A stretch of DNA of 64,000 nt from Aplysia californica (GCF_000002075.1 NW_004797331.1:1504770-1568769), one strand, 5' to 3'. Shown: positions 3,375-61,549, numbered from the stretch's first letter. Made by a program: numbers and translations. Notes: generated from the sequence alone by a model not told the origin.

Positions 3375-3864
3375 GAGGGGGTGGGGTGCTAGCAAAATGT
3401 ATTTGACATGCCCCAGTTGGCAGGAGGAAGGAACGAGAGAAAGATAGAGTGGGAAATAGGTGGGGACAAAGAAAGACAGAGACAAACAAAGAAAAAGAGA
3501 AGGCGAGCGATACACAGAGGAGAGAGAAAGAGAGAGAGGGGGGGGGGGACTGCTCGATTGAAATTATGACATTGTAACTTGTTCTTTTCTTCAAATTGTG
3601 ATTCCTCCAACTCCCAAACGGAGGAAAAACGATCGTTCATCGAAAAGACATCCGCAATCTTCATTTAGATCTAGGCTAGCCGCGAAACTAGATCAAAGAT
3701 TTAAGTCTGTCTGCCTAGATCTACACCATAGACCTAGAAGAACCTAGGTAGTCTACCCTGAGCCAAGAGGGCGCTGAAACTCTCCGAAATCACAAAAGAG
3801 TTCCCTTACCGGGTCTGTATACTTTGTGACTTTGTTCCCGGTTACCGGGTCTGTATACACTCCC
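3224..3864. mobile_element. MULE-like MITE nested in the previous element
   Basis: ~95-bp TIRs (GTGTATACAGACCCGGTAACCGGGAACAAAGTCAC...); exact 9-bp TSD TTTTTATAT at 3215-3223 and 3865-3873. Confidence 0.85.
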
Positions 3865-4225
3865 TTTTTATATTGTCAATAAGAGATCAAGTTTAATCAC
3901 CTAGTCATTTAAGTAAGGAAGTGGCTATCCTCACCCGGGGTGAGAATAAAAACCCTACGATTGACCTCTCACCCCGGGTGAGACTTGCCAGCGTTGGCTA
4001 TTCTCACCCAGTGTAGTGTGAAAGAAGACTTGTTTTTCGTAATTTTGAAATACTTTCTATCGGTGTGGATGATCAAATTGACAAAAGCAAAGGAAAAAAT
4101 GACGTTATAGCACAAAAGTAAGCTAATTTGATCGTCTACAAAGATGCTATGGCTCTTTCACTTTTCGAATCGAGCCGAACTACGCGGGTCGCCATTTTGT
4201 TTTGCCTGGAAGATCTACTCCTCCC

Positions 4226-4228
<3 letters not shown>

Positions 4229-4275
<47 letters not shown>
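4229..4275. repeat. (CT)n microsatellite
   Basis: direct reading. Confidence 0.95.
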
Positions 4276-4279
<4 letters not shown>

Positions 4280-5106
4280 GCAATTTATTAAATCTGCAAC
4301 CTGCAACTAGATTACAACTAGATCTAGATTCGAGACTTTTTTGTAAAATCAGAGTCCAGGGAAAAACATCAATTAAATTCGTGTGGTGCAGATGAGTATA
4401 GAGAGACCAAAACAATATCTCTATTATGACTATCATTGCGCATCTCTTCGCCTAATACATGTTCCGGTAGCTTTAACTACCTATAAATAGATGGAAGTTT
4501 GACCCGTGTCAAAGGTTGGGAGGTGGCTGACGACTCGGGAGGTGGCTGCGGGTTGACGAAAGGGAAAAGCGCTTCGGCGCTAACTTTCATTCTGCCTCTG
4601 GTCTGGGAAGGAACGCCGCATGGCAAGCCCGTCTTCAGACAACTTTCAGTTACACCCACCACACACCCACCACCATCATGCACATATGTACACACACAAA
4701 CTTATACACACACTAACTAAACATGATCAGTGGGCAACTTTTGAATATATGACGAGCTGAGCTGTGGATGGAGAGACAGTGTGAGTGACAGAGCAGGTGA
4801 AAGGAAGAATGTACGAGTGTATCCACAGGCGACAGCAACTACAAGGCGACGACACCGACCCCCCAGGCCTGGTCCACAGCTCACGAACGAAAGGAATGTG
4901 GCTAAGGCAGTAGGCAATGTTTTGCTAATATTATTGTCCATGGTTCGCAGGGTGCTAGGGAATGAGTGAGATTTTCTTTGTGTGTGCCTGGAGGGAGGGG
5001 GTGGGGTGTGAAAGTCATGCGGACGGGGATGAGCCGCGGGAGAGAACAGAACACGGGAATTCAATGAATGAGTGAAACTGAAAGAGAGGAACGACTCATG
5101 AGCCCT

Positions 5107-49500: not shown

Positions 49501-51943
49501 TATTTTCCACCCTGTCAGAACAAGGATCAGACTTCTGAGCATTATGTTAATACCAGTGTATTCTACTGCCCAAGACAACTAAAATGTCAAGTTCAAAAGC
49601 AGCTCATAGAAAAGATTTAAAAAATCAAATCAATTTTTTCTTTTTTAAACATGCTTTTTTACTTGTGTAATTCCTAAAGGAACGTTATATTATTATTTTC
49701 ATAGAGCATAAAATCCACAGGTGATCAATGATCAAGAGCTATACTGACAGTGACTACACATTCGAAACGTTATAAGGCTTATATTCTGTACCTTACCACT
49801 TTTTTTTTTTAAACGAAGAAAAATGAAGAAAGAAAGAATAATTAAACTAGCTTTCCTCCAACAATGGGCAGAAATAAAACTTCCACTAATGGTTTTACTC
49901 CAGAACTCATTTTATCTATCTCAAAAGAGTCTCTCAGATTAGAGACAAAACTTCCGCATGAATTCAAGGATCAAAGCGCTGGTGAAACAAAACGCACATA
50001 TTTGTTATACCAAACATTGTGCACACACAGAGCCAGCAACCTACCACATTCTCCAGAGGTTGAGAACCAAACACTTTGTACAAGGAACTAGCTGTGCCAG
50101 GTGACCTGCCAGGCGTGCAGCACAAGACCACTGCCTGCTGGCCCACTCGGATGGTATACTCCTCTATGGTGTTTTTCAGCTTTCTATATCAGACAAAGAA
50201 TCAAATGCAAAACATATTTATTAGTTATATTTATTTATTTTTTGGGTGAGGGGTGGGGGAGAAAAAGTTGCATCTCTGCACTTGCAATACGAGTAGGCTT
50301 ACTTCATGCCTCAAAAGCCTACTTCATTTGAAATGTTCAACCCTCTTGTCACACAATTATAAACACCATTTTGCATATAACTCCTAATTTTTGCTGATTT
50401 GATGTCTCATAGTGCAACATCTTGGTTCATGACTGCGCTAGAGACATGAATGGTTCAATATAAATAAGTAATTATAAACACAAGATGACTCAATTTTTCT
50501 TGAATCACTTTTTTTCTCTCACATCTTTCAGTTATAATTCATAGTTACAAACACGACAGTCCATACCTTTTCACCTGATTAATGCAGCCCTTTTTTATTT
50601 GCTTCTGTTTGTGGAAACACACTCACATTAAGTAAACCTATGAATACTCATGTACACATACATTTATCAAGACATAAATGGGAATTATTTACTACGCACA
50701 GGATCTTTCCATGTCGTGTGTCTAGGATAATATAGTGACACTCACAACAAATAGCATTATACTACATGTGAGTCATGTCACGATGTGTTTCCACTTCCAT
50801 ACTCAAAATAATAAACAAAAGCCACAGTTAATCAGTCTCACCTCAATAAACGTGTTTGTTGTCTTTTCCGACGTGATGGATTCGTCTCAAACTGATGAGG
50901 GTGACCTTTCTTTTTCCCTGTGGCAATAGCAGCAGCTGCAGCAATTCCTACAGGTCCTGTCAACAAGAAAGATGAAAGATTCAAAGATGTATGTGGGTAT
51001 CTAAATAAATGTGGTGATATTTTAAACTCTACCGATCTTATACAAATTGAGGAAGGAGTGTCCTAAAAAATTTACACCCACAAACCATGTTACAGATAGC
51101 ATTAACCTGTTGCTGTGAAAGCAAGGATTGACCTGCGAATTCAACACATACTGTCTGTACCTCATGTTAGGAGTAGATCCGTCAAAAACAGACGTTCATG
51201 GTTGAGAAATATTCAACAAATTCATCAATAAATTGACTGGGGCTGCTGTACAAGGGAGCACACCTACCAAATGATCCACAATCTATCTGAAGAACCCACT
51301 TTTCACATGCCAATCTCAAATTGGTCTAATCGACTAAACATATTTTTCATACCAGTTGCAGAGTGCCATAAGAAAAACAAAACAAAACATGTATCACACT
51401 TCCTTGTCCCACCCGGTTTGCTGCACCTTAATATTAATTATTATTAACTCAGTTTCCTTGCCAGTCACTATAAATAACTCAACATAAACTTTTTATGAAC
51501 TGTGCTCACTTAAGAAATGCATGATGTCTTGCCTCAATTAATAAGCTGTGTTATTAATTTAATATTTAATACTGCCCTTACACATGGAGTTAGCTATAGA
51601 CACTTTATTGCCAAGTCAAATATTTTTCTTACCCGACAACTTGATCAATGACAATGTACGGCATTGCTTTCATTTTAATAAATTTATAAACATAAACTTC
51701 AAAGGCTATCTCCGTCTTGCTGGCAACTAATCATCATTGCCTACCTGCAGCCGCTAGCTGTGCTGTCACCTCATCCGTCATTGAACCATGGATGAGATCA
51801 GCAGCATCAAATGCACTCTCTGGTGAGGAGGGGCCATCACTCATTTCATCCTCCATAATTCCTGTGTTGATATGAGAGCCACCAATGGTGATTCCTCCTG
51901 TCATGGTGCCATGGACACCATTGCCAATACCTGAGTTCATCAT
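43469..51943 (-). CDS. NRF1: Nuclear respiratory factor 1 / erect wing / P3A2-family transcription factor, 9 coding exons, ~474 aa
   Basis: Minus-strand exons 51943-51745, 50956-50842, 50183-50045, 49306-49157, 48481-48323, 47828-47541, 45780-45594, 45076-44994, 43573-43469 (1425 nt, in phase). Hallmarks: DEVTAQLAAAGPVGIAAAAAIATGKK, RKRQQTRLLRKL, RVGQQAVVL, LPPLVIDGIPTPIDKMTQAQLRNFIPEMLKYST, KPGWGK..PIWWP..PWANVRSD, VSWTEALRTIVK, NPDGTVSII. Confidence 0.96.
43722..44510. mobile_element. Tc1/mariner-pogo-like MITE in last NRF1 intron
   Basis: TA|CAGTGGAACTCAGATTCAAC ... GTTGAATCAGAGTTCCACTG|TA. Confidence 0.82.
44994..45076 (-). CDS. NRF1: NRF1 coding exon 8
   Basis: GIVTIPASMYQQMTGLALPDSAQATIQQ; |gtgagg. 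Confidence 0.9.
45594..45780 (-). CDS. NRF1: NRF1 coding exon 7
   Basis: EATQAVQTLAEVAANQQ...ATLSQNGQIILSGDG; g|gtgaga. Confidence 0.9.
45965..46350 (+). mobile_element. Copy of ~380-bp retroposon
   Basis: Colinear with 12695-13075. Confidence 0.75.
47541..47828 (-). CDS. NRF1: NRF1 coding exon 6
   Basis: VSWTEALRTIVKDCYKHHGREDLL...INNPDGTVSIIHIDTG...VVTLPDGTQATVV; strongest donor acg|gtaaga (in-frame alternatives at 47553 and 47574). Confidence 0.9.
48323..48481 (-). CDS. NRF1: NRF1 coding exon 5
   Basis: AQLRNFIPEMLKYSTCRSKPGWGKPECRPIWWPADLPWANVRSDARSEDEKKR; |gtaagt. Confidence 0.96.
49157..49306 (-). CDS. NRF1: NRF1 coding exon 4
   Basis: IRTCRNVVTQELENALQEQA...LPPLVIDGIPTPIDKMTQ; |gtcagt. 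Confidence 0.95.
50045..50183 (-). CDS. NRF1: NRF1 coding exon 3
   Basis: KLKNTIEEYTIRVGQQAVVLCCTPG...YKVFGSQPLENV; |gtaggt. Confidence 0.95.
50842..50956 (-). CDS. NRF1: NRF1 coding exon 2
   Basis: GPVGIAAAAAIATGKKKGHPHQFETNPSRRKRQQTRLL; |gtgaga. Confidence 0.95.
51745..51943 (-). CDS. NRF1: NRF1 first coding exon
   Basis: Acceptor at 51953; MMNSGIG...EDEMSDGPSSPESAFD...TDEVTAQLAAA; g|gtaggc. Confidence 0.9.
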
Positions 51944-52358
51944 CTTGACAGATCTGGCAAGATGGAAACAGAGTCTTAGTACTTTGACTTTGAACAAAAT
52001 AACTTTTATAACATTTGTTGTATTAATAACATACAGCTTTATCGGGAGACATCCCAAATTGAATTGGGCATTTTTGTGGAATGATTTTGATGATAAAAGC
52101 AATTAGAAAGAAAAAAATATCACACCATCACCATCAGTATCCCTGGTTAAAGCTCTTGAATTTTGGAGTATTTTCCCTTTATCTTAAAATGAACTGAGGC
52201 AGCACGGCACACTAACCTCTAGCCTACTTTACGATTGGTAAGATAAATTATGAAACTTCTCATTGGCAACCTTTCTAGCTGCTGACAATAACAAATAAAA
52301 AGTATGGCAGGAATTTCATTTTTATACAAACAACCACTATAAAGTGTCATTGTGGGGA

Positions 52359-56259: not shown

Positions 56260-59200
56260 GTACTTAATTCATTTTTGTCTTTTAAGCTAGCTATACTTTG
56301 ATAGCAGACAAAATCTACAGCAGTTCTACACAAGGAAGTTTTGAGTGTACTGACATGGGTAATGAAGTAGCACATAATTTAATCAAATCAATATAAAAGC
56401 ATGACAAGAAGTGTTTCTTTCCAATCCACTCCATGGTTCACATGGTTGGAAAGACTAAGGTGCCTCTCGTAAGTTAAACATCTCAACTCTCCATCTTTAA
56501 AATCTTTTGTTTCTTTTGGCCTATTTTACTTTTTTCCTCACACTGAGTGACTGGTATCTCTTCAATGTGTTTCTTTTTACTCTAGCTATGCTTTTTCTCA
56601 TTTTTTTTCTTTAAATAAAACAGCTAGTGTTGCTTTTAAAGGTGTTGACTGTTGACTGAATACTTCACGTTATCAGTATTGATGAATTATACAGCACAGT
56701 GACTATTCAATAATTCGTGACTTCCTACCCTTTTCTGGCTTCCCATCATCTCTTTCTTGTGAAGCACATTGCTCTTGACTTTGCATATTTCTTTATACAG
56801 TTGGGGTCAAGCTTAAATTGAAATAAATACGTAAACACTGTGCATGCAATAAAGATCATGCAATACAGGTCTATATATGGAGAAGAAAAAAAGCAGACCC
56901 TTTGAAGAAAAGAGTTGAAGAATCTTTACATGTTCGACATACATTGTTCCATTTTTAAGCCTTCCTATTTTTTGACAATAGAAAATAAGGATTCGTCTTA
57001 TTGTGGATCAATGATGGAGATCTTAAGAACTTTGGGTTTGCTTTTGTATTTTGAAAACCGGTTTGCTTTTCACAACTGCTTATGCTATCCAATGCAATCC
57101 CATTTTGTTGTGAAAATTGGGATGTGGCAGCATGCTAAGATTTTTGTTGTTGCAAAACTGTCTTTTGCGCTGAGAAAACAGAAAACTTCTTTCTATTAGG
57201 CCTATTATGATAATATTCCTGCTTGCAGATCATTGAATGGAGCTTGGTACGAAATCGCCCAGAGTGCTCATGGAATGCCCATGGTGGCACAGTGTTGTGG
57301 ATGGACATCAGGAGTATGGACGGGAACTGTTTCTTGTTTTCGCAAGGTAGAGATGGCACCATCAAGGTCTGGTCTTGCAGTTGCGGTTTATGGACTCCAC
57401 AAGGTATGGCACTAGAAATTTCCGCTGCGTCTCATTACACCGCAGCTTGAATGAAGTGTAACAGTTGGAACAATTTTTATCATTTCCCTGTTCCTGACTC
57501 ATTGTTAAGGGCAATAGCCTCAGATGCATGGAACAGAATGGAACTGGTTGATGTTGAGATATGATGCTTACATCATACAAAAATACAGTGCACGGCGCAC
57601 GAAATCAGCCGAAATCGCGCCTTTTAGTTGCACCGCAGCTCCCGCTGTCCGGAGGTAATTAATCTCCCGGCCCGGTACTTGTTGACCTTTTTTATTGGGG
57701 TCATTCGACCTCATCGCACCGTTATAAACTGGGATGCGTTCTCGATAAAATTGTCTCATTTACTACCTGAATTGTAGTTGTGCCGTTAGACCCACCAAGT
57801 AGTTTTAATTTATAGACTTTAGCAACACCATTTCTCCTCCTCTTAAAGAAAGTCCCAGTCTTCTAAGTTTTATACCAAGTGTTCCACACATGTCTGTTTG
57901 CTGCATGTGTAACACGCTTTTCTCATTTCAAACTGAGGATAAATAATCATTTATTGCAACAAAACGGTGCATTGAATTTTTTGGGATTAGTATGTGCGTG
58001 TTCAGTAACAAATCCTGTTTTAAGTGTGTAAATTTCAGTACTACCGCAGTTGTGATTGTTAAGCTACATCGGATTATTGCGTTGGGCCCGCGAATTTACT
58101 CACATTATTGCTGTATAAAACAATGACCTTAAAATGGAGCACACCCCTGAAAGTCATGTATCCGCTTTAGACAGTCTGTTTAGAGTGTACGGAAGACTGA
58201 ACATTACAGGGAGGCAGAGAAAATCCTTTAAAAAGCCGTATTTATGTTCGGAAATAGCCAGTGATCTCTTCCTTGTGTTTGGGTGGAATATCAAAGATGA
58301 CATTAGTGACAAACACTCCAAATTTATGTGTTTGAAATGTTATAAAACGATCTATGACGCTAAACTTCGAAATAGTGCAGTGTCCCTACAAACATTTGGT
58401 GTGCTTACATTGAAGACTGTGATGCGAAAACATACGCAGTCTGTGAACAGAAAAAAAAATTGCTCTCTCTTGGCTGTGCCACAGTAAAGCAACGTTACCC
58501 CCAGTCTTCCTACAGCAATCAAGAAACATACACATACCAAGCTAGTCCTAGCACCAGCATTTCTGAGACAGACACAACCACACAGAGTACATGTACCCGT
58601 GCTCTCAGCACACTCAACTCAAAAAAGACCCACACACAGTACAAGTCAGAATTGCCACACCAACCCTCAGTCTGTTTACCCAGTCAGTGACCAACACATA
58701 GATGTACAACATGCAGAGACAATGATTCAGGACATGTGTGTATACATAATAATAAAACCTATAGAGCCTTCTCAATAATTTGTGAGGAGTTAAATAAGGG
58801 AAATGTGTGGATATTTACGGCAAAGTGATGTATAGATCAACCATTTTCAGGTTACGGAAATTGCGGTAGCAGTGAAATTTGGTGAGTAGATAGCCTTAAG
58901 TATTACGTTTATGTCCCTCAAAGATGAACTTATCCTGATGCTCAGTTTTCTAATTATCGGCGCTCGTTACGTCATAACTGGAAACGCTAACGGGAATCAG
59001 ATATGACCATCTTGCACTTTCTGTTACAACTAAACCGACAAATACTGATTCACTTTGTTTTTGAAAAATCATGGAAAAGGCTTGGAACTTCTGATTCCCT
59101 CATGCAGTGATATCTTTCTGTCAATATTGTTGCGTTAATTAGCGCTCAATTCAGGATGAAAAATACGATTTTCTAAACCTCCCGCACGGTCATGCTGACC

Positions 59201-61549
59201 AAAGAATGCCCATCAAAGGTCAGCGCGGCACTAGCTACCTGAGTTCTCAACTAAAGTATCCTGTTTCTGTGCGCCGTGAGTGGAGTCCGCTTAAACTAAA
59301 CAACACTGCTAATCTGAAAAAACGGTAAATCTAAAGAAAATACAATCCCAGATTTAAAAAAAAAATTTCCTTGTAAGAAACCTATTGATAAACTGAAATG
59401 CTCACATCTCTAAACAGAAATTAATTTTGAGGGTTATAATGTTGTTTAATTCTTCACTAGCAACTCTCAAGTAATGCAAATCATCAAGTCTTATGTGTTT
59501 CAAAATAGAGAAACAGAAGAGAAGAAAAAAAGTCCTGAACACATGTGTATCAATTGCAGACAAGAGAGAAGCATTGCCAATGTTATAACAGATCAATGGG
59601 CATGTAACCCACTTCGTCTGTTGCGTGACCTTTGGTTGGCCATGGCTTATTGTCTATGCGAAACTAGTACACAGAAGCCTTTCACTACATAAGCATGTGA
59701 CGACGGATGGTGTATAATGACGTCCCTGTCATCAGGCTTTCTTTTTCACATCTCTATTTATTCTTGCATCTGTTTTGTGTGACTGTTTGGCAGATTAAGC
59801 AAGTTGACAATGTCGAAGAGAAAGGGCAATGCTTTCTGCCTACAGCTCAATTAACAGTTACTTAAATTCAAAGAGTTAGATGAAAAAAACAACTTTCAAA
59901 AAATGAAATTTGCTGCAAGCATGGCATTCCCAACTCTATGCTGTCAAGAATCATCACTGTATTAACCATTTAGCTCCTAAATGGGGGCTTTCTTGTACAG
60001 TGGGTGTTGCATTCAACGAGAAGTCGGCTCCAACGAGGCAATACTAAATCCCAGATTTTTCCTCTATGTCTCTTTGTTGTATGTTAGCTCCAACGAGGTT
60101 GTAAATAGACCGAAGTCACCACCAAAGCGATAACCAAATAAAAGGAATTAACGGCTCCAAAAGCGAAGAATTCTTCTCCTTTCTCTCCATCTCACACAAA
60201 GCACAAGGCCCATCTTCCATTCCTAATGCGTTGTATTGCTAGATCTAGTGTGCCTCCTAGTACTATATATGGGCCCCAAAGCCAAGAGGATGGGTGAAGG
60301 TTGGCCTACGGTAGGTATGGGAGGGGGTGGGTGGGAACGCGACGCGGGCTGTGTGAAACTGGATGAACTCTGGATGGGTAGGTCTAGATCTAGGTCGATA
60401 CCTTCATTTTTTTCAATTTTCTTTTCTTCCCCTGATCAGAAAATCCAAGGTCCCGCTTATGTAGATCGTATCTAGGCCTAGATGTGAGAGGGTGTTTCCA
60501 CAAGAGAAGTGTTTTTCGAAAAAAACCTATAAAAATACAGAAATGACGGTGAGAACACAGCTCAAACACGCGTACACTGATGCTGTTTGAGATTTTCACC
60601 CTCCAGGGGAACAGCTGTTTTTAATTAGTGGTATGGGTACATCGTGTAATATATAATAACTAGTCTCCCCTTTTTCTTTTCTTTAGCCTTAGTCATGTTC
60701 AACGAAAGGTCGGACCGAACGAGGACAACAAACTGGTCCCGGCAACCTCATTGAATGTGACTCCCACTGTACCATATTACTCAAACTTTCAAAGTATCGA
60801 CAACGTATTGTTTTTTATGTATTTCAGTGGAAGTCCCATCTGCTTCAATGCTGTTCTGTAACAGTTCCCTAGCAGTGACGATGGACAAGTTCACACTGGC
60901 TGCACCGAGTGAACAGCAGGCCACTGTTGACCTCCACCACATTTGTTCATCAGAAAAAAGTCGCCCCTTGTCCGTTTCTTACCACCATTTCCTTCGACCC
61001 GACAGCGAAACGGAGTATGGCATGTGCATGAAGATGCAGTTTTGTCCTGCTGAAGTTGAAGAAGGTGTTTCCAAGTGTCCCCTGCGGCTACTGGTGGGCT
61101 ATGAGAGCGGACAAATAGTTCTGTGGGATGCAGACCAGGCGGTACAACTGAGTCTGCTCCAAGTGTTTGAGGAGCCAGTAATGTGTCTGACTGTGTGGTG
61201 CGCCACTGTCAACAGCCGGCGTGTCGCCCGGGGATGTTGTGGCTCCACTTCCACTGAACTGAAATCGTTTTGTGTTGGGGTGGACACAATAACCACAGAC
61301 AAATCTGTATCAGTCACCAATGCAGGTTTTTCAGATGTCTGCTGTCGAGAGGATGCAAAGATTTTTGCCACTGGTGGGTGGGATAATGCAGGTCGTGTGT
61401 TCAGTGCAAAAACGCTTCGTCCCTTGGTGGTGTTGACCTACCACCAGAAAGGTATTGGTGCTGTGACCTTTTCTCAAAACAACAACCTAGCCTTGGGCTG
61501 CAGAGGAGGCTACATTACAATTTGGGATGTTTATAAAAACACTGGGTGA
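56110..61549 (+). CDS. GNB1L: GNB1L-like WD40-repeat protein (Asa1 family), 3 coding exons, ~348 aa
   Basis: Exons 56110-56259, 57229-57403, 60828-61549 (1047 nt, in phase). Perfect Kozak GCCGCCATG. Motifs PPPDPV, LFSG, LFSQGRDG, YGMCM, LLVGYESGQIVLWD, EEPVM, TNAGFSDV, DAKIFATGGWD, TLRPLVVLTYH, ITIWDVY match GNB1L architecture. Confidence 0.92.
57229..57403 (+). CDS. GNB1L: GNB1L coding exon 2
   Basis: IIEWSLVRNR...AHGGTVLWM...LFSQGRDGTIKVW; g|gtatgg. Confidence 0.9.
57591..59278 (+). mobile_element. Chapaev/N-RAG-TP-like (CMC group) internally deleted transposon with decayed RAG1-N-like zinc-finger ORF (58134-58487)
   Basis: CACGGCGCAC ... GTGCGCCGTG termini; 4-bp TSD AGTG; ORF H-x4-LxxL(F)RV(Y)G...C...FGWNIKDD..KHSKFMCLKCY. 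Confidence 0.8.
59998..60769. mobile_element. Tc1/mariner-pogo-like MITE in GNB1L intron 2
   Basis: TA|CAGTGGG..GCATTCAACGAG ... CTCATTGAATGTGACTCCCACTG|TA. Confidence 0.75.
60828..61549 (+). CDS. GNB1L: GNB1L coding exon 3
   Basis: 240-codon ORF after atttcag acceptor with multiple WD40 blades, stop TGA 61547-61549. Confidence 0.93.

Follow-up and report, generated by a model that had tools for sequence, protein, structure and literature searches.

We have analysed a window of 64,000 nucleotides from Aplysia californica (GCF_000002075.1, NW_004797331.1:1504770-1568769; positions are counted from its first letter) in which an intron of the GNB1L gene carries a 1688-bp transposon (57591-59278, read directly from the sequence) with a long left end and a short right end. 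The element belongs to the named family Chapaev-3_ACa, as a non-autonomous copy with a large internal deletion. The fixed long and short ends are a real feature, apparently undescribed, of a transposon group that is already known, and it is likely that the design of one long and one short end, which underlies the 12/23 rule of the RAG1/RAG2 recombination signal sequences (RSS), operates in the more distant Chapaev lineage too.

Unequal ends in the window element and across Chapaev families

Both tips of the element start with CACGGCGCAC and are bordered by AGTG, a target-site duplication (TSD) of 4 bp, and a second block, TTTAGTTG, occupies positions 33-40 counted from the left tip and 24-31 counted from the right one (Table 1). 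A first-pass annotation of the window had described the 1688-bp element, its TSD and the two placements of the block, all of which are present in the sequence. A DNA search of the genome with the window element recovered 59 matching pieces; a perfect 4-bp TSD of variable sequence was found in 14 of the 16 two-ended family copies and a 5-bp TSD in none (0/16), and the family end pattern gave 40 genome matches against 0 in the control. Because of these three results, the features of the window element cannot be attributed to chance. Within the family, the left-end spacer measures 25 nt in 21 of 24 ends, 24 nt in one and 15 nt in two, and the right-end spacer is 16 nt in all 16 ends. The two 15-nt left ends correspond to one insertion site (L004) that has been locally duplicated with identical flanks, and its 10-bp deletion may predate or postdate the insertion.

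When the open reading frame (ORF) of the window element was used as query, 147 Chapa-like matches were obtained in the genome. From these we fetched 100 loci, and ends were called from tip identity and TSD alone, the box (the distal block) not being used. Two ends with a 4-bp TSD were found in 48 loci and no accepted end pair in 52, one of the accepted pairs (L136) being a false pick. The box was present at both ends in 44 of the 48 two-ended elements, always with the long end on the left and the short one on the right and with an offset of 9-11. In 11 Chapaev families of the A. californica genome, one of them RING-bearing, the TTAGT of the box starts at 33-36 from the left tip and at 24-25 from the right tip (34/25 in family A; 34/24 in each of families B, C, E, G, H and I; 33/24 in D; 36/25 in each of F and J). 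The Chapa+RING family, with CACACTT tips, shows 34/24 in four of the seven loci in which both ends were found, three of these four with a perfect 4-bp TSD; in one member (L188) the left box has been lost. An offset scan without a preset value singled out 9-11 in 8 of 10 families; one further family gave a tie, and in the last another offset came out on top. The families are well separated, with core identities of 38-61% among eight of them and of 37-40% for the RING type, and their spacers average 34-38% identity. That the box offset has been kept while the spacers diverged suggests that selection on spacing is likely.

A general end pattern gave 976 genome matches and 194 in the control, and a loose pattern, used for pairing ends only, gave 347 and 302, respectively. 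Pairing used the first 100 matches of each, so that pair counts are partial; among the matches listed in four pattern searches, all 63 unique convergent pairs joined a long and a short end (offset 9 in 14, 10 in 39 and 11 in 10). The layout also extends to another host, as the box is at 34/24 in the metagenome element L153. This was the element informative at both ends among the 15 metagenome loci; two others (L154 and L158) provided left ends only, with the box at 34 and 35, and 11 were uninformative.

The first-pass annotation had conceded that the asymmetry might be a private indel, with symmetric ends in other copies. Isolated decayed copies in which the box is shifted or missing do exist (L004, L097 and L188), but the asymmetry is a fixed trait of the family ends counted above and is shared across families and hosts, so a meaningless indel private to the window copy or to its family is refuted and retains a practically negligible probability.

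Two further observations concern these families. A derivative of family E of ~1.6 kb predominates among the end matches listed, on many contigs, with L075 as its full-length parent. In the long ends of the 11 end sets, A/T-rich tracts are found at 12-15, 22-25 and 33-36, a 10-bp period that may reflect an origin by duplication or may help the longer end to bend.

The window copy as a deletion derivative of Chapaev-3_ACa

The longest family copy is L058 (4350 bp); its ends are the same, it has a 4-bp TSD, and its transposase is complete, with the full core, but frame-broken. Positions 1-1144 of the window element align to 1-1191 of L058 and positions 1207-1688 to 3849-4350. The window element thus matches only the first 1191 and the last 502 bases of L058, and therefore ~2.6 kb have been deleted, including the catalytic core, in line with the non-autonomous derivative proposed in the first-pass annotation. 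A miniature of 272 bp that keeps both ends of this family was also found (G000:C7:1588895-1589166). An intact ORF is present in a sister family, at locus L051.

The N-terminus of the transposase of Chapaev-3_ACa, a Repbase family, is printed in supplementary file 5 of PMC4411706. In a by-eye comparison of the Chapa domain with this sequence, 69 of 80 residues are identical in the window copy and 79 of 80 in its sister copy L024; L051 and L149 match the Chapaev-1_ACa and Chapaev-2_ACa sequences of the same file. Chapaev-3_ACa shares with the window copy the lack of a RING, the CAC...GTG tips, the 4-bp TSD and the near-identical Chapa domain, and the window copy differs from it by deletion, which has left 1.7 kb, and by its broken zinc finger. 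In fact, two zinc-ligand cysteines are replaced in the window copy (FRVYG for CRVCG), a change that the first-pass annotation had deduced and that is supported by the CRVCG of the sister copies. The ORF at 58134-58487 reads as it had reported, but it follows the transposase frame for codons 1-87 only and is then frameshifted. As the Cys-to-Phe change is common to several 1.7-kb copies, this subfamily likely spread in trans once the zinc finger had been lost.

By itself, the window ORF has neither a relevant Pfam match nor longer homologs in the protein database, and the N-terminal structure model gave weak ZAD matches only, with PDB entry 21WB not among the matches listed. The proposed similarity to the RAG1 N-terminal region and the Chapa domain is nevertheless found with the family profile, which matches 21WB with an E value of 5e-5, and in the Chapaev-3_ACa comparison above. 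No relatives were found in a scan of viral contigs.

Chapaev elements produce TSDs of 3-4 bp, that is, 4 bp or, in Chapaev3, 3-bp TWA, and RAG-like (RAGL) cores have about 30% or more sequence identity to RAG1. The window element combines the CAC...GTG termini included in the Chapaev definition (PMC4079192) with a 4-bp TSD and an N-terminal Chapa domain, decayed in this copy. The DDE core with its C(2)C, LH and H motifs, deleted in the window copy, is present in L058 and L051, and its residues are highly conserved in homologs (D480 and D551 in 56 of 57, C570 and H638 in 57 of 57, E885 in 46 of 47 non-gap rows). No similarity of this Chapaev-type core to the RAG1 core was detected by phmmer, profile or Pfam, and identity in the structural alignment is 14-16%. 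Furthermore, full elements of 3.8-4.4 kb hold a single 2.8-kb ORF, which leaves no room for a second, RAG2-like gene, and the RAG2-like partner that was looked for is absent from them; a genome search with PF03089 gave no match either, but carries little information. An identity as RAG transposon, Transib or RAGL was ruled out by the 4-bp TSD, the absence of RAG2 and the low core identity, and the preference of the first-pass annotation for Chapaev over Transib/ProtoRAG agrees with the TSD counts of the family.

The window copy is an ordinary decayed intronic insertion. The first-pass annotation had given GNB1L as its host gene; the best protein match, at 100% identity, is indeed named GNB1L [Aplysia californica], and GNB1L exons lie on both sides of the element (~57229-57403, and from 60828). 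On the strand opposite GNB1L, an exon-like frame at 51734-52102 (-) may resemble the N-terminus of NRF1/EWG-type transcription factors.

Table 1. Positions of the window element, its parts and its host intron
Feature	Positions	Strand	Remarks
Left target-site duplication, AGTG	57587..57590	.	4-bp TSD in 14/16 two-ended family copies
Long (left, 5') end	57591..57630	+	terminal 10-mer; spacer with imperfect 10-bp tandem repeat; distal box 57623-57630, TTAGT from position 34
Decayed Chapa (RAG1 NZD-like) zinc-finger coding region	58134..58394	+	FRVYG for CRVCG; frameshift after ~codon 87
Frameshifted remnant of transposase second zinc finger and S/T-rich linker	58395..58734	+	
Internal deletion junction region	58735..58796	.	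~2.6 kb of the 4350-bp parent gone (NBD-like segment, catalytic core)
Short (right, 3') end	59248..59278	-	terminal 10-mer; spacer; distal box 59248-59255, TTAGT from position 25
Right target-site duplication, AGTG	59279..59282	.	read in sequence
GNB1L host intron enclosing the element	57404..60827	+	splice sites by eye
NBD, nonamer-binding domain.

The transposase and a proposed reading of the two ends

The Chapaev-1_ACa locus L051 encodes an intact transposase of 937 aa with a Chapa domain, a disordered linker, a helical segment and the DDE core. Its structure model (pLDDT 85.7) has RAG1 as the best PDB match of the core (Z 29.2, root-mean-square deviation 3.8, 463 residues aligned, 14% identity), and HzTransib and BbRAG1L are matched with Z 24.8. 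The full transposase is thus predicted to fold like the RAG1 core, with the helical segment ahead of the core at the place of the RAG1 nonamer-binding domain (NBD). Several structural alignment rows begin at model residues 302-312, opposite RAG1 392-412 in the NBD, and model residue 304 pairs with mouse RAG1 392, presumably the proline of GRPR. Of 46 homologs, 43 retain R305 and 23 retain K303, and G293 is invariant (45/45). According to the model, it is suggestive that this helical segment is the NBD counterpart.

Some other transposases deserve mention. Copies of Chapaev-1_ACa with intact 937-938-aa ORFs, 99% identical mutually, were found at L051 2768-6872 and L052 (G000:C880, C379), from which the family appears young and possibly still active. 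The Chapa+RING elements (L069 4971-6569, G000:C198, and L182-L188) have a RAG1-like domain order, and the L069 linker contains a 10-residue tandem repeat. In Plakobranchus ocellatus there are close homologs (P0016, P0026, P0028, P0047 and P0057) labelled 'amine oxidase', probably a misannotation.

The ends show an RSS-type layout, with a conserved tip, a distal block and a spacer difference of about one helical turn. In the RSS consensus, as quoted in the accessible part of PMC1131882, the nonamer A-tract lies at 22-26 from the tip in the 12RSS and at 33-37 in the 23RSS. The A/T peaks of the Chapaev box are at 23-26 on the right and 33-36 on the left, in 8-11 of 11 end sets, and fall within these A-tracts, a match that was spotted after the fact. 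By analogy, the position of the box would fit a minor-groove A/T reader with the reach of the NBD. The 12/23-like asymmetry claimed in the first-pass annotation therefore stands as a one-turn spacing difference, but in sequence the box is no nonamer, and the pairing rule would be an extrapolation.

We lean to the reading in which a transposase dimer would cut at the CAC tips and bind the distal box through an NBD-like module, one long end pairing with one short end. The two ends would then be differently spaced binding sites for the full-length transposase; the A/T-rich box would be gripped by the NBD-like segment, which carries a conserved (K)PRK motif, and the NBD-like dimer would absorb the one-turn difference by tilting, as in RAG. 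The window copy could have been mobilised in trans by an intact family member.

Several observations, however, weigh against this reading. The 63 long+short pairs give no proof of a pairing rule, because plain internal deletion yields such pairs too. The L004 insertion has near-equal spacers (15/16) with an intact TSD; L097 (G000:C71), a single decayed element for whose left end no second copy was found, has its box at 41/24, an offset of 17; and in L157, the most divergent metagenome element, no TTAGT was found at its doubtful candidate right end. The TTAGT of the box is distinct from the A-rich nonamer and agrees with it in A/T character and position only, and the long end lies 5' in Chapaev, whereas the 12-like end lies 5' in the asymmetric Transib families covered by the accessible part of PMC1131882. 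As to the protein, the isolated NBD-like segment matches the RAG1 NBD with a Z of only 3.7, within noise, and there is no true GRPR/K motif, (K)PRK occurring without GR (IIPRK in L051). Finally, a 9/21 asymmetry is found in the P elements, where the binding domain is unrelated (PMC7776569, in its accessible portion), so that convergence is real.

Two other explanations draw on some of these points. The box could be a real transposase site for which either spacing, lying on the same helical face, is usable at either end, the asymmetry being a 10-bp duplication that became frozen, without any rule of pairing. We regard this as unlikely, although the left spacer of the window family is indeed an imperfect 10-bp tandem repeat, the L004 spacers occur with an intact TSD and BbeRAGL has been described as little dependent on its NBD-equivalent domain, since none of the 11 families has turned symmetric or reversed its polarity despite cores down to 37-40% identity, and the short-left variant is confined to one site. 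Alternatively, the asymmetry could be required but independent of the RSS nonamer system, with the box read by another part of the protein, such as the Chapa finger or the conserved TGGQP hairpin, or else by a factor of the host, comparable to the THAP sites of the P element. The box sequence and polarity unlike those of Transib/RSS, the P-element precedent, the weak NBD-like match in isolation and the invariant G293 speak for this possibility, but the box is at nonamer distance from the tip at both ends and, when whole proteins are compared, the segment ahead of the core is aligned to the RAG1 NBD, which makes this explanation quite improbable in our judgement.

Relation to known systems and significance

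An N-RAG-TP of A. californica was reportedly described by Panchin and Moroz in 2008. It is cited, in the accessible parts of PMC8355894 and PMC8374863, as consisting only of RAG1-N-like sequence, and it has the same host and RAG1-N-like coding sequence as the window element, so it very probably belongs to the same group of elements; in the present analysis, by contrast, elements of this kind derive by deletion from full transposases with a DDE core of their own. The asymmetric Transib families and PflRAGL-A, as far as they are covered by the available text of PMC1131882 and bioRxiv 2023.08.20.553239, have in common with Chapaev the CAC tip, a distal A/T-rich block, a length difference of ~10 bp and the RAG1-like core fold. 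They differ in their 5-bp TSD, A-rich nonamer-like block and GRPR/K NBD, in the short end being 5' in the Transib families and in the RAG2L carried by RAGL, whereas Chapaev has a 4-bp TSD, the TTAGT box, (K)PRK, the long end 5' and a single gene. With RAG1/RAG2 and the 12/23 RSS, Chapaev shares the domain order (zinc finger, RING in one family, NBD-like segment, core), the register of box and nonamer A-tract and the one-turn offset; it differs in the core (14-16% identity), the lack of RAG2, an offset of 9-11 instead of 11 and the box sequence. In the Drosophila P element, too, the distal transposase site is spaced differently at the left and the right end (9 vs 21 bp), which the accessible portion of PMC7776569 calls reminiscent of 12/23, but it belongs to a different superfamily with THAP-domain reading, and our model matches the P transposase with a Z of only 11.2.

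The Chapaev-3_ACa family, the link between Chapa and RAG1 and the asymmetric ends in Transib and RAGL-A are already published. For conserved long/short ends in Chapaev we found no description in the literature listings and passages searched, although the N-RAG-TP paper or the Repbase entries may mention such ends. Models of RAG evolution dispute whether the asymmetric RSS-like ends came from Transib or from RAGL-A; Chapaev is a more distant group that has the N-terminal finger and RING of RAG1, and its ends have so far had no part in this debate, to judge from the accessible parts of the sources. It is a tentative possibility, which we hold with some doubt, that NBD-read long/short ends already occurred in the ancestor that Chapaev shares with Transib/RAG, that Chapaev enforces a 12/23-like rule without RAG2, and that Chapaev-1_ACa is a living single-subunit model of the beginning of the rule. 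The intact transposase of L051 offers a natural test enzyme. A one-turn asymmetry in the register of the nonamer would either date this design before the split of Chapaev and Transib or show its repeated evolution on the same fold, and either origin is testable with the intact 937-aa transposase of the A. californica genome.

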